Position numbers: made by a program. Positions 24,001-27,000 of a stretch of DNA of 64,000 nucleotides are shown here, piece by piece. The stretch spans positions 544,001 through 608,000 of the forward strand of contig CAVSHF010000005.1 of assembly GCA_963727805.1 (NCBI GenBank), written 5' to 3'. Source of the DNA: an uncultured Nitrospiraceae bacterium. GTDB taxonomy: Bacteria > Nitrospirota > Thermodesulfovibrionia > Thermodesulfovibrionales > Dissulfurispiraceae. How positions within the stretch are numbered: position 1 is the stretch's first letter; each line of letters begins with the position of its first letter.

Positions 24001-27000
24001 ACTGGCACTAAGTATTGAAGAATATTAGCGATAAGGCTAGCTCTTTAGCGCTAAAAGGGGAAAGAAAACGGAGCTGATTTCTTTTATGATAGCCGGATCT
24101 ACCGTCGTAATAATCATCGGCAGTTCCGGCTGTTTAAGACTAGATGATCACACTTTTGCCGAAGCACGTGCAGCTAGGCTTTGCAGGCGGAGTTTTGATG
24201 AAGACGGCCTCTCAATATTTACGCTTAGACGTACCCATAATTGTATTCAGGATACTCCTTTTTGTTGACCGAAGCTGTTCGTATGCCGAGAGGCTTGCCA
24301 CGTCGGAACCTTGCGTCTTCGGGGTCCAGGTCGGCGATCGAAGAGCGAAGAGCGAAGACCCCTAGTCAAGCACGGGGTTTAATGCCCCGCGCGCAAAGCT
24401 GGTCCTAGAGCGCATAGTACGATCGGGCCCTTACTCCCGTGAGAAGGCAGTGAGAGTTGAGAAATTTTTCGATGCAAGGTTAGTAGTCGAAGTCATCGAT
24501 ACTGCATGATCGCCCAAATCGATGACTTCTTGGTGTAATGATCGGAAGTTGTCTCTACATTGCATTCCATCCGAAGATTTACAATATGCGTGCTCAAATT
24601 CCTCAGTTACCGACTCTATTTTTCAGTTGCCATCTTTATTTTTCGCAATCAATTATCTCATTTACGCCCATTAAGTTTGCTTTCGATTCTGGAACATATA
24701 CCGTGAAGCATGTTAACTTCCCATTCCGTAATACCTGCCCTGCCGATAAAGTGTTTAAGGTTCGTCATGATCTTTTTTTCAATGTCTCGATCCCCCATCG
24801 GGATATATTCGAGCAACTTCAGGGTATCCGAGATTCTTGCATACAATAATGAAAGTTCCTCGTGACGGACGAGTCGGACAGACGCGAGAGAAGCTTTCCC
24901 GTAGGATTCTGACTCTCTATAATCGACGCGTGAAAGCTCATATGCCACAATAAGGACCGCCTGCGAAAGGTTGAGTGATGGATGTTCGCTATTGGCCGGA
25001 ATGGAGAGAAGTAAGCCGCATTCTTCAATCTCTTCATTAAAGAGGCCCCGATCTTCCCGTCCGAACAGAATCGCTATCTCGTTATCCGCTGCAAGGGCAC
25101 GCAGCTTCTGTACCCCTTGCGCGACGGGATAAATAATGCCTCGCTTCTTCCCCTTTCGACGTGTAGTCCCTGCAACAATCGCCTTATTACTTATCGCCTC
25201 TTTCAGGTTTTGATAAACAGGAGTGGCTTCGAGCACATCGAGAGCATTGCGCGCAAACCATTTCGCCTCGTCAGTAATTGCCACAGGCTTGACAAGGCAG
25301 AGTCGTCCGAATCCCATGTTCTTGATCGCCCTCGCAGAAGCGCCCATATTCCCGGGTTCGCGCGGCTCAACGAGGATAAAAGAGACATTATCCTTCCAGC
25401 TTTTCATACACAGATTATAACACCTGCCGAATCCTTATCCCCAAAATAGCGATCATACCGAATTACACACAAAAAAGGGCGGGACTTTGTTAGCAGTCCC
25501 GCCCTTCTCATGAACAAGTATTCAGCTCTATTAAACTAGCAGCCTTCAATAGCCTTTTTCTTCTGGATCTTGCCGTCTTTCACCATAACCTTATCGCCGA
25601 CCTTGAAGCCCTTTGCATCTCCTTCAACAGTCGTCTCCTTACCGTCAGCAGCCTTCACCGTAATCTTGCTGCCATCGATCTTGGTGATCGAACCCTTCAC
25701 ATCGGCGGCGAAGCAAAGGCCGACAACACCGAGAGTAAAGATGATCGCCACCAATAATACGAGTACCTTCTTCATTTCTTGCACCTCCTTTCGATTAAAG
25801 ATTAGAACCATCTTCAGTTCTTACTTATGTATTTTACTATATCAGCCACACTTTAAGCCAGATCAGTCCTTCATGGGCTTGATGAACATGAAGTAGACCA
25901 TTGTCCAGTTCCCCAGGATTATGAAGACAGTTGCAACGATACTTTGCAGCGCCAGTCCTGACACACCTGTCAGGGCATGTCCCACCGTTCAACCACCGGC
26001 AAGTGCGCCTCCTATGCCCATAATAACTCCTCCGAAAAAGACCCTTACCAGTTCCGCAGCGTCTCTCGGGGTGGTCAGTTTGAATTCTGAAAGCCCCTTG
26101 GCGCTAATATAAGCACCCAAAGGAACACCTAAAATATAGAGAGAACTCCATGAGATGGCACCATAGTTAAAGATGCTGAAAAGTTGGTCATTTTTTGCAC
26201 CACTGTCTCCGGTAAGGAAGAACATCATTGATTCAGCGAGAGGGCCTGAGAACGAAAGACCCCTTGCGCGACCTCCCCACTGAAAAGAAGTCCACCATGC
26301 GCCGACTATGACCAGACCGACAAGGAGTCCGCCCAGTGACCATGACCAGCCCTTCTTCGGCTGTTTGGCGAAAGGCTTTCCTTTGAGAATGACCGGAATC
26401 AATATGCCCACAATAACGGCGATAATAATCCATTTGTAGTCGGGACCTCCCAAAATGTCCCACAGAGCGGGATTGGCAATCGCATCATCGCCCGTCCCTA
26501 TCGGCACCTTGTAGCTTTTCAGGAACTGCATAAGCGGCTGGAGCGGCCCGTGATAGCTGGCGATAAGGGACAAGCCAAATCCGAGCATCGCTACAAAGGC
26601 TGCGAACGCTCCCTCACCCTGCTTGTAAAGGACTCCGCTACCGCATCCTCCAGCCATGACTATACCTAGACCAAAAATATAGCCGCCGACAATGGCCGCT
26701 ATAGGAGCAAATGTCTGACGAGTCAGCCCGTCATCACCAAGAAATCCGAGTGCTTCAAGCCCATTTGAACCAACAATAGCCACAACAAGAGCGAGAAGCC
26801 ATGCGCGCAATAACGTTGTATCGTTTACAAAGATCACGTCTCTGAACGCTGAGTTCATTCAATATCTGCCGCGCTGCAGGACGAAACCGAAGACAAGACC
26901 TGTAAGGACACCGCTCAGGATGACCATTATGGTCGCCGGTTGTACCTCCATCTGATACCTCCCTATTTTGTGATATTTTCCAGCCAATGGCCTTGTAACT

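Follow-up and report, generated by a model that had tools for sequence, protein, structure and literature searches.

A YeeE-type membrane transporter with predicted selenocysteine at both ends of its pore relay in dsrAB-bearing Nitrospirota

RESULTS

A yeeE/yedE-family gene with two in-frame TGA codons

The window, i.e., the whole stretch of DNA analysed, is 64,000 nt long and comes from an uncultured Nitrospiraceae bacterium (Dissulfurispiraceae; GCA_963727805.1, CAVSHF010000005.1:544,001-608,000). Its minus strand carries a transporter gene of the yeeE/yedE family (25863..26951), which gives a protein of 362 aa if both internal TGA codons are read as selenocysteine (Sec). An earlier note on this DNA had described one transporter gene split by two in-frame TGA codons, and our codon-by-codon translation agreed: positions 26951 to 25863 make up a single 363-codon frame whose only stops, all TGA, are codons 31, 321, and 363. 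A Shine-Dalgarno-like GGGAGG, read off the sequence (26958..26963, minus strand), precedes the ATG at 26951, and the terminal TGA is a true stop, as TAA or TAG ends 15 of 18 orthologues. TGA codon 31 (26859..26861), Cys103 (TGC; 26643..26645), which is the sole Cys codon of the frame, and TGA codon 321 (25989..25991), all on the minus strand, lie in the contexts LQRGRY-U-MNSAF, AGGCGSG, and LAGG-U-TVGHALTG, respectively, where U is the predicted Sec.

HMMER aligned U31, C103, and U321 with C22, C91, and C293 of Spirochaeta thermophila YeeE (6LEO; E 9e-47), i.e., with the cytoplasmic loop-A, middle pore, and periplasmic loop-D cysteines. All three loop A/B/D cysteine positions of the family are thus occupied, two of them by TGA, as the earlier note had claimed in placing the TGA codons on the outer conserved cysteines and a Cys in the middle. 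The Cys-only paralogue that it had reported on contig C3 (994066-992987) is stop-free and 64.8% identical to the read-through protein over 361 aligned residues, with Cys opposite both TGA codons. The same genome contains selA, selB, two selD genes (each with a TGA), and tRNA-Sec(UCA).

The protein matched Pfam PF04143 (Sulf_transp) at 233.7 bits against a gathering score of 27, over profile positions 1-310 of 310. Its AlphaFold model (pLDDT 82) matched 6LEO in Foldseek with E 4e-20, TM 0.82/0.90, and 35% identity, the next unrelated fold having E 0.01. The top NCBIfam match was the Spirochaeta TsuA model, but both TsuA models scored under their cut-offs (NF041049, 163.3 versus 645 bits; NF052577, 247.5 versus 400 bits). 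The selenium-metabolism YedE/FdhT models belong to the same superfamily, but at 88.4 versus 350 bits (NF033796) and 44.7 versus 200 bits (TIGR04112) the protein is not a member. Cytoplasmic R37 and E113 and the periplasmic-loop R230 are invariant. The protein resembles YeeE/TsuA (S. thermophila 6LEO/6LEP/8J4C/8K1R; E. coli TsuA-TsuB) in fold, in the three relay positions, and in the partner-face residues R37 and E113, and differs from it in the Sec at the C22 and C293 positions, the sub-threshold TsuA scores, an ExtJ-like neighbour, a dissimilatory rather than assimilatory context, and the lack of an adjacent tsuB. No TusA-like gene (tsuB/yeeD) was found in the flanks of any probed locus with the Sec/Cys/Sec (U/C/U) pattern, and the tusA of this genome lies at C5:1178240.

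SECIS-like hairpins

A SECIS-like hairpin lies downstream of each UGA, and its register matches that of the hairpin after the UGA of selD in this genome. Hairpin 1 (26828..26844, minus strand; +15 to +31 after UGA31) has a 6-bp stem and a CGUGA loop, and the same loop follows the in-frame TGA of a hydrogenase gene in this genome. Hairpin 2 (25957..25974, minus strand; +15 to +32 after UGA321) has a 7-bp stem and a GGUG loop. Published bSECIS criteria ask for a loop of 3-9 nt, a G in its first two positions, a spacing of 16-37 nt, and an MFE of <= -7.5 (PMC13188914). SECIS modelling, which the earlier note lacked, had a divided outcome: hairpin 2 lies within all these limits (loop 21 nt after the UGA, -11.2 kcal/mol), whereas hairpin 1 agrees in loop, G, and spacing but falls short in energy (-6.4 kcal/mol), with its silent sites frozen. 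Synonymous change is absent at its codons 37-41 in 55/55 U/C/U genes, whereas the gene mean is 0.48 and the Cys sister clade shows 0.36-0.55. Of the 226 codons scored, just six are free of synonymous variation, and all of them lie in the hairpins: five in hairpin 1, the sixth in the hairpin 2 loop. At least 6 of the 7 pairs of hairpin 2 are kept in all 66 TGA genes, compared with 1 of 46 Cys genes, and 97% of the cells are paired with 28 both-side changes, a pattern of covariation (slid controls, 26-42%). Folding energy in the window gene did not set either hairpin apart from shuffled sequences (z of 0.02 and -1.26, respectively); the separation came from conservation. Scanning the whole genome for a UGA followed by a hairpin returned 47 candidates, mostly noise, and missed selD, making the scan unfit for counting selenoproteins.

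Sequence comparison thus makes it nearly certain that the product is a full-length membrane transporter of the YeeE fold with predicted Sec at both ends of the pore relay, each UGA being decoded through a SECIS-like hairpin of its own, and the earlier claim of recoding at the entry and exit residues now has hairpins and site-by-site positions behind it.

Distribution of the TGA forms

We searched 151 genomes of the class and obtained 97 matches with E<1e-60, of which 70, comprising all that showed TGA, were inspected codon by codon, the other 27 having no stop. This inspection, in place of the TGA counts used before, found TGA at exactly both sites in 18 genes, at the third site only in 5, and elsewhere in 1. 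In the family sample, 33 of 61 genomes had a two-TGA gene; 15 of these also had a stop-free paralogue, and in the other 18 the same search did not detect a full-length Cys twin. Genome and metagenome sources together gave 82 U/C/U loci, equal to 55 non-redundant genes with TGA at the exact Cys positions, after 9 of the 59 matches from the metagenome exact-pattern search were dropped as not YeeE. The middle GCGSG codon was TGC or TGT, never TGA, in every relative inspected. UGA31 was accompanied by UGA321 in 35/35 complete genes, although the exact motif pattern could miss other U31 contexts, and UGA321 alone (C/C/U) arose or persists in several lineages. In two genes nested in the U/C/U clade, only site 1 had reverted.

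The U/C/U and C/C/C clades were sisters within the family in quick trees with SH-aLRT support only (97/97; second tree, 95/97), and the AU-test groups (40 rows) were picked after viewing a tree. The U/C/U genes share W51, A86, Q111, W202, T293, and Q336 in 55/55 cases, and carry K where the conserved cytoplasmic R98-equivalent is expected. One gene (G178) is a natural revertant, C/C/C with all six signature residues, in which silent changes break both hairpins. Loss of the Sec machinery does not account for the Cys-only or reverted forms, as selA was present in 10/10 genomes tested.

YeeE is already catalogued as a selenoprotein family with one Sec in GUxSG (PMC13188914), and Peng et al. 2016 (PMC5029168) list 5 members of the family from 5 organisms. 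The catalogued form (PF04143, WP_012471001.1, its Sec position inferred from motif alone) shares with ours the Pfam family and a Sec in place of a pore cysteine. As the earlier note had held, the present form is different: it has two Sec, in RGRY-U-MN and GG-U-TVG, neither of them in GUxSG, and keeps the GCxSG cysteine. We found no description of a two-Sec YeeE in the available literature on YeeE/YedE selenoproteins or on Dissulfurispira selenocysteine, where survey supplements could hold one.

Among the best 120 database matches, 59 were fragments of 285-292 aa running from the Met after UGA31 to UGA321, and none contained U. An entry named Dissulfurispira thermophila, a cultured sulfur disproportionator, also carries the gene, cut to 289 aa in the database. 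The present reading puts right the annotation in about half of this dsrAB-bearing Nitrospirota family, where comparisons of sulfur disproportionation see only fragments.

Neighbouring genes

The next gene downstream (25536..25775, minus strand) encodes a small exported protein, 79 aa from its second Met and ending in KKKAIEGC-COOH. The earlier match to ExtJ stood, with 63.7 bits against the NCBIfam NF040942 cut-off of 52.5, and the ESM Atlas returned only "hypothetical" or "putative ExtJ" clusters (0.87-0.90). An EGC-tailed gene follows yeeE in 48 of the 50 non-redundant U/C/U loci with enough sequence, and the E-G-C terminus is invariant in 36/36 aligned ExtJ-like proteins. Beyond it lies a trmJ-like tRNA methyltransferase gene (24658..25407, minus strand; TIGR00050 over cut-off), a syntenic neighbour that also follows Cys-only yeeE genes and is probably not part of the transport system. 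Three selA-positive genomes have a Cys-only yeeE in this yeeE-extJ-trmJ arrangement. Since extJ is also found downstream of Cys-only yeeE and, in six genomes, of phsA/psrABC-like genes, its presence does not mark selenium. One locus unites dsrEFH-like genes, tusA, yeeE, phs/psrABC, and extJ. The polysulfide reductase of the Geobacter ext operon is, we presume, ExtKL. The selenoprotein of that operon is given as a polysulfide reductase in the available text of PMC13510729.

A DsrE-like trio lies directly upstream of yeeE in 12 of 36 genome-scan loci, its first gene scoring 22.0 against the Pfam DsrE cut-off of 22.7. No tusA or dsrEFH-like gene was found next to yeeE in this genome, which has tusA and dsrE/F/H-like genes beside its dsr region; the relative G026 has a full yeeE-tusA-dsrEFH-like cluster, and yeeE relatives with about 55% identity are found in yeeE-tusA-dsrE/F/H-like clusters. 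dsrA is present in 32/33 carrier genomes, but also in 56/61 genomes of the family, so carriers are not singled out by it.

No sigma-70 promoter or terminator above chance was found around yeeE. Public RNA runs covered small shares of the stretch, and parts of the gene in relatives were covered by contigs from three metatranscriptomes and a further run, which is evidence of neither transcription nor an operon. A complex prediction from alignments for a Cys-only YeeE (L020) and its adjacent mature ExtJ (score 0.01, mark 0.32) was uninformative on binding either way.

The Cys twin and a tRNA-Sec-like RNA

A tRNA-Sec-like RNA with a GCA anticodon precedes the Cys twin in 6 of 9 loci scanned, and 10 of the 25 elements from a search seeded with a yeeE-linked copy have the twin as their next gene. 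In two genomes (G007 and G044), LysR_Sec_metab is encoded directly upstream of the Cys twin and selenium_YedF nearby, both over cut-off. The second tRNA-Sec-like element of the present genome precedes a Cys [NiFe] hydrogenase gene; this gene has a 75%-identical twin with an in-frame TGA. A LysR-type box, ATAG-N7-CTAT, stands before 15/25 elements; neither copy in this genome has an exact one before it.

We infer that the two genes are probably an ancient pair of Sec and Cys isoforms, the Sec gene serving when selenium is replete and the Cys twin standing in for the same job when it is low. As a counter-sign, the signature residues of the U/C/U clade and its K at the R98-equivalent suggest that the twins may do not quite the same job. 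The arrangement resembles the Sec/Cys switch of Methanococcus maripaludis, in which Cys isogenes of selenoproteins are grouped behind the selenium-linked LysR-type regulator HrsM (available text of PMC11097638); the present case differs in being bacterial and in having a selC*-type tRNA-Sec-like RNA before the Cys isogenes, with putative regulation.

DISCUSSION

The transporter fairly likely imports reduced sulfur, as sulfane sulfur or polysulfide or possibly as thiosulfate, to feed Dsr-linked energy metabolism. Signs of this are the dsrA of the carriers, the DsrE-like trio upstream of some yeeE genes, and the phs/psrABC-like contexts of extJ. For YeeE/SoxT/YTD transport, transient hydrogen bonds have been proposed in structural papers and transfer of sulfane sulfur in physiology papers. 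Being ionised at neutral pH, a selenolate donates hydrogen bonds to an anion poorly, yet it is a strong nucleophile; for this reason, a covalent hand-over would fit better than the S-H...S relay proposed for TsuA. The exported ExtJ-like protein, a proposed periplasmic sulfur carrier, would carry sulfur on the Cys at its C terminus; U321, as a selenolate, would take it over in a Se-S adduct; the sulfur would pass from U321 to C103 and on to U31, i.e., from periplasm to cytoplasm; and U31 would hand it to cytoplasmic TusA, from which it would reach DsrEFH-like proteins and then DsrC. We would give this ExtJ-to-TusA hand-over, taken as one, an even chance of being right. A C22-C91 disulfide in a YeeE crystal indicates that those two cysteines can react, and S. 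thermophila YeeE C22A still complemented while the E. coli equivalent, C25, was essential (PMC7449682, available part); U31 need not be catalytic, given that C22A still complemented.

Two systems are comparable. SoxT1A/SoxT1B of Hyphomicrobium denitrificans are Cys-only, full-length YeeE-family proteins proposed to move sulfane sulfur from periplasmic SoxYZ to cytoplasmic sulfur transferases (PMC11582611), whereas the carrier here would be ExtJ. YeeE of the YTD cluster (yeeE-tusA-dsrEFH type II), proposed as a polysulfide importer (PMC13293266), is similar in that many U/C/U genes follow a DsrE-like trio and their hosts carry dsrA; in contrast, the tusA-dsrEFH-like genes of this genome lie elsewhere, and the available texts on the YTD cluster do not mention selenocysteine (PMC13293266, PMC13047784, PMC12998232).

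As a whole, a two-Sec, covalent sulfur-relay importer, the selenium-replete isoform of dsrAB-bearing Nitrospirota, is in our view the best explanation, with a slightly better than even chance. The protein could instead be a thiosulfate importer just like TsuA, with a non-covalent relay, cleavage by a TusA-like partner, and Sec for faster turnover or oxidation resistance. The shared fold, the three relay positions, the top match to the Spirochaeta TsuA model, the invariant R37, E113, and R230, and the occurrence of ExtJ otherwise beside a PhsA-like (thiosulfate) reductase speak for it, but the protein scores under both TsuA cut-offs and has no tsuB beside it, the S-H hydrogen bond is out of reach for a selenolate, which would also add negative charge to an anion path, and, in cable-bacterium assays, thiosulfate gave no persulfidation of TusA/DsrEFH type II (available text of PMC13293266), leaving this reading unlikely. 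Less probable again is that U321 is the functional selenol and UGA31 mostly a translational checkpoint that aborts synthesis when Sec-tRNA is short, sparing the cell a truncated membrane protein of 320 residues. UGA31 never without UGA321, UGA321 alone in several lineages, the two site-1 reversions, the dispensable C22 of S. thermophila, and the weak hairpin 1 would all fit; against it, the C/C/U lineages manage without a checkpoint, E. coli C25 is essential (both mutants, PMC7449682, available part), and the K110 and Q111 changes at the cytoplasmic exit came with U31.

The earlier note took the selenols to mean a substrate other than thiosulfate, naming selenium, polysulfide, or soft-metal species. 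Polysulfide fits best; the selenium and soft-metal options were not supported, and a pore retuned by two selenols to such species seems slightly more improbable than the checkpoint. The name of ExtJ comes from a selenite/tellurite reduction operon, the clade has its own residues, and YedE-type proteins co-occur with selD and are induced by selenium starvation in Methanococcus, but yedE deletion gave no clear transport phenotype there (PMC11097638, available text) and our protein scores far under the selenium-YedE models. The selenium-substrate reading is further weakened because the tRNA-Sec-like RNA, the LysR regulator, and YedF flank the Cys twin, not the Sec gene; ExtJ accompanies sulfur reductases, and also Cys-only yeeE genes in the same slot; and an importer needing two Sec would fail when most needed. 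A last reading, in which the gene is a pseudogene and its TGA codons nonsense mutations, or in which the 289-aa database fragment is the true protein, has the 59 database fragments in its favour but is refuted for practical purposes by conservation: in 55 non-redundant genes the two TGA occur at conserved Cys codons and nowhere else, the hairpins track the TGA, the flanking 30 and 41 codons are conserved, and a fragment would be short of the last helix and of two relay residues out of three.

For deciding between the hydrogen-bond and sulfane-sulfur models of YeeE/SoxT/YTD transport, a protein with predicted Sec at both ends, its 65%-identical all-Cys twin, and the C/C/U and reverted forms make a natural series in which selenium is a direct label. 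A bolder and rather doubtful extension is that YeeE-type proteins are membrane-spanning sulfurtransferases rather than passive hydrogen-bond channels, with a Se-S-Se brigade from ExtJ, as an undescribed periplasmic polysulfide carrier, to TusA, and that cells change over to the all-Cys twin by means of a selenium-sensing module with selC*-type tRNA-Sec mimics as leaders of Cys-isoform operons. The associations described here are first functional leads for ExtJ and for the GCA-anticodon selC* RNAs, and the carriers include, by its database name, a cultured disproportionator.

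A YeeE transporter gene with two predicted selenocysteine codons

The YeeE/YedE gene at window 26951-25863 (minus strand) occupies a single frame in which codons 31, 321, and 363, all three TGA, are the sole stops, and codon reading found codon 103 to be its one Cys. With TGA read as Sec, it yields a 362-aa product that belongs to PF04143 and wholly covers this Pfam model, Sulf_transp (233.7 bits versus 27). This confirmed the claim of an earlier note that two in-frame TGA fall on the first and third conserved cysteines with the middle one retained. The Cys-only paralogue of about 65% identity that it placed on contig C3 also held up: this Cys twin (C3:994066-992987 of the source genome, G000) lacks stops, is 64.8% identical to the window product, and has Cys opposite both TGA. 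U31, C103, and U321 (sites 1, 2, and 3) align with C22, C91, and C293 of the solved S. thermophila YeeE structure, and the AlphaFold model of the product (pLDDT 82) has a TM of 0.82 to 6LEO. As that structure has been described, the three cysteines are arranged in line, with C22 facing the cytoplasm, towards a TusA-like partner (PMC7449682, PMC11073785).

The YeeE/YedE selenoprotein listed in a 2026 catalogue has a single Sec, within GUxSG (PMC13188914; also PMC9312934), and Peng et al. 2016 counted five YeeE selenoproteins in five organisms (PMC5029168). No two-Sec YeeE was found in the literature searched, and supplements of other surveys may contain one. The two-Sec form (U/C/U at the three sites) is a real, well-supported variant of this known selenoprotein family, with a testable bearing on how these transporters work. 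The genome encodes tRNA-Sec(UCA), selA, selB, and two selD genes, both of which contain TGA.

SECIS-like hairpins follow both UGA codons

Removal of loci more than 97% identical left 55 U/C/U, 11 C/C/U, and 46 C/C/C genes, in which we looked for SECIS elements, absent from the earlier note. Hairpin 2 spans +15 to +32 past site 3 (UGA321) and has 7 bp with a GGUR loop; at least 6 pairs were kept in 66/66 TGA genes versus 1/46 Cys genes (mean -10.9 versus -4.8 kcal/mol). Its cells were 97% paired with 28 both-side changes, against 26-42% in slid controls, and no shuffle reached the same level of pairing, in a test inflated by relatedness. Hairpin 1, after UGA31 (6 bp, CGUGA loop, +15 to +31 past site 1), is weak (-6.4 kcal/mol, z 0.02), and by published criteria satisfies the loop, G, and spacing rules but misses the consensus energy limit (PMC13188914). 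Its codons 37-41 are nonetheless frozen, showing zero synonymous change in all 55 U/C/U genes (gene mean, 0.48) versus 0.36-0.55 for these codons in the Cys sister clade. Only 6 of 226 scored codons were synonymously invariant, namely these five and a Gly in the hairpin 2 loop. The register agrees with that of the hairpins downstream of UGA in selD, and the CGUGA loop also follows the in-frame TGA of a hydrogenase gene in G000. One relative (G178) has Cys at both sites yet all six clade-signature residues, and silent changes disrupt both of its hairpins, so that, as judged from its sequence, it is a natural control. By all testable criteria except the energy of hairpin 1, the window product is predicted to be a selenoprotein.

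Distribution and history of the Sec and Cys forms

The earlier note had deduced TGA positions in relatives from counts. A search of 151 genomes of the class gave 97 matches with E<1e-60, and we inspected the codons of 70 of them, among which was every match showing TGA: 18, all in the window's family, had TGA at both sites 1 and 3, five from two other families had it at site 3 only, and the middle Cys was never TGA among the inspected matches. An exact-pattern scan of 185,579 species genomes for site-1 TGA, which divergent motifs would escape, gave 36 matches, all YeeE. Thirty-four were labelled Nitrospirota, several of them Dissulfurispiraceae or Thermodesulfovibrionales; the exceptions were a Bacteroidetes-labelled short contig and a Chloroflexota-labelled gene that nests within the Nitrospirota clade, indicating misbinning or transfer. 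A metagenome scan for site-3 TGA gave 59 matches (29 U/C/U, 10 C/C/U, 11 too short to class, and 9 not YeeE), with 3 of the 10 C/C/U genes only 38-40% identical. The distant genes at this identity (L093, L095, and L102) lie downstream of tusA and have Sec confined to the periplasmic site; here a TsuA-TsuB-like pair gained Sec independently. In the family sample, the two-TGA gene is present in 33 of 61 genomes, and 15 of these 33 also have the stop-free twin. In public protein sets, 59 of the 120 best matches were 285-292-aa pieces lying between the two TGA, none of them containing U and one named Dissulfurispira thermophila.

In quick trees, the U/C/U and Cys-twin clades were sisters (SH-aLRT 97/97, and 95/97 in a second tree with SECIS columns dropped and 30 of 55 U/C/U rows). 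Because both clades are found throughout one shared set of genera, the duplication is an old one. Their closest outgroups are C/C/U, which, with a midpoint root, suggests a C/C/U ancestor of which one copy gained U31 and the other lost U321. Two C/C/U genes that retain part of hairpin 1 are nested inside the U/C/U clade, and U/C/U monophyly excluding them was rejected (AU p 0.009; 40 rows, groups picked after the tree was seen). Three Cys-clade genes (L019, L020, and L022, from G147, G050, and G116) occupy the Sec-gene slot of relatives and have the Sec-clade Trp51, and hairpin 2 is kept in G147; both features hint at gene conversion. G000 also retains, at C5:19868-19969 (minus strand), the first 33 codons of another yeeE, its third and of Cys type, which run into TAA just past the first Cys.

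The Cys twin and selC*-type RNAs

In 6 of 9 loci, that of G000 among them, the Cys twin has a tRNA-Sec-like RNA immediately upstream (Rfam, 43-55 bits; gathering, 47). The GCA anticodon and long variable arm of this RNA are features of the selC* tRNA-Cys class (PMC5389517); one supplement file of that paper holds no yedE, yeeE, or LysR. Both G000 copies, which have a ~300-nt upstream region in common, were missed by ARAGORN: one is 5' of the Cys yeeE (C3:994191-994318, minus strand; L037:4206-4331) and the other (C3:~960050-960163; L212) is 5' of a [NiFe] hydrogenase gene of Cys type; a twin 75% identical to it carries TGA at an N-terminal nickel-ligand position. In a [NiFe] hydrogenase large-subunit gene at C3:1352680-1354389 (minus strand; L214), the second Cys codon of the N-terminal nickel motif RxCGxC is replaced in frame by TGA, a SECIS-like hairpin is present, and Cys is retained in the C-terminal DPCxxC; in classical [NiFeSe] hydrogenases, Sec is in the C-terminal motif. 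The split-Soret cytochrome c gene after the Cys twin (C3:992108-992884, minus strand) is interrupted by stops.

A family search seeded with one element found 25 distinct elements in 25 of 61 genomes, followed by Cys yeeE (10), double-cubane reductase (3), split-Soret cytochrome (2), hydrogenase (1), or other genes (4), or by no readable gene (5). A LysR-type ATAR-N7-YTAT box, often ATAG-N7-CTAT in relatives, precedes 15 of the 25, with no exact copy before either G000 element. In two relatives (G007 and G044), a selenium-associated LysR is immediately upstream and a selenium YedF is close by, both above cut-off. The HrsM-controlled Cys isogenes of Methanococcus follow the same pattern (PMC11097638). 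The elements and their Cys isogenes make up a candidate selenium-limitation regulon, in which the RNA possibly acts in cis. The yeeE-extJ-trmJ slot itself is filled by a Cys-clade gene in three genomes that have selA. From such gene contexts, we infer that the Sec and Cys twins share much the same job, with the Cys copy serving at low selenium; alternatively, the Cys copy may be a selenium importer in its own right. Clade-specific residues of the U/C/U form (W51, A86, Q111, W202, T293, and Q336, with Lys replacing the cytoplasmic R98-equivalent) show some retuning.

A putative ExtJ-like partner and the sulfur context

A small exported protein with a Lys-rich EGC end is encoded after yeeE in 48 of the 50 nonredundant U/C/U genes with enough sequence, and downstream of 3/11 C/C/U, 3/14 sister Cys, and 3/32 other Cys genes. 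In the window, this ExtJ-like gene (25536-25775) ends in a Lys-rich EGC-COOH tail. All 36 aligned copies share the E-G-C, which persists where a Lys/Asp/Ala linker replaces the folded ExtJ beta domain; the working part is therefore the tail. Six genomes from another family have the ExtJ-like gene behind Fe-S and NrfD-type genes, with a PhsA-like molybdoenzyme ahead where checked, and a single locus of G026 unites dsrH/E/F-like genes, tusA, yeeE, phs/psrABC, and extJ. Among the ExtJ-like loci that keep the EGC tail or follow phs/psrABC-like operons are L218, L222, L223, L225-L227, and L246. In Geobacter, the surroundings of extJ have been described as including rhodanese, porin, and multiheme selenoprotein genes (PMC5877670), and one multiheme selenoprotein from that organism is a polysulfide reductase (PMC13510729). 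This reductase is presumably ExtKL. The ExtJ-like protein is a candidate periplasmic polysulfide carrier. A second G000 copy (C3:1170771-1171007) is 5' of a c7-type cytochrome gene.

A DsrE-like trio precedes yeeE in 12 of 36 genome-scan loci, and the tusA and dsrE/F/H-like genes of G000 lie ~12 kb from dsrA. Carriers of the two-TGA gene have dsrA in 32 of 33 cases, but so do 56 of 61 family genomes. Just 3' of yeeE-extJ-trmJ in G050 (L180:2791-7097) are a TsoY-family gene above cut-off, an ArsR regulator, and a type III SQR-like gene.

A putative sulfur relay and its alternatives

On sequence grounds, the recoding signals, Sec positions, fold, and gene context of the window yeeE appear established. 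We lean towards a covalent hand-over of sulfur from ExtJ through U321, C103, and U31 to TusA. ExtJ-Cys-S(n) would dock at the periplasmic vestibule of YeeE, where the U321 selenolate would take over the sulfane sulfur; exchange would carry it to C103 and then U31, with TusA as the acceptor. Ionised at neutral pH and superior to Cys as nucleophile and leaving group, Sec fits covalent exchange rather than the published S-H...S hydrogen-bond relay. The disulfide seen between C22 and C91 in the YeeE crystal (PMC7449682) makes exchange between C103 and U31 plausible.

Thiosulfate is bound by C293 on the periplasmic side of the S. thermophila structure (PMC7449682, PMC11073785), and TsuA-like thiosulfate uptake is a less likely alternative, the window product lying below the TsuA cut-offs. 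It is improbable that UGA31 is merely a translation checkpoint, a reading favored by the exact-pattern scan, in which U31 was never found alone and all 35 complete site-1-TGA genes also had TGA at site 3. The selenium or soft-metal substrate that the earlier note had proposed now seems quite improbable, with the product also below the selenium YedE/FdhT cut-offs. That the TGA gene is a pseudogene is scarcely credible.

Upstream of yeeE in the window (27217-33705), DUF202, universal stress protein, and TauE/SafE sulfite-exporter genes on the same strand face a sensor kinase and a sigma-54 activator, and an Lrp regulator, O-acetylhomoserine sulfhydrylase, and cysK are at 34585-39189; the sulfur-related upstream genes are not kept beside yeeE in most relatives. 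Mobile elements comprise IS21 and ISNCY transposases and an integrase and IS91-like transposase pair, the pair named by eye (9263-10816, 13465-14391, and 17821-19938).
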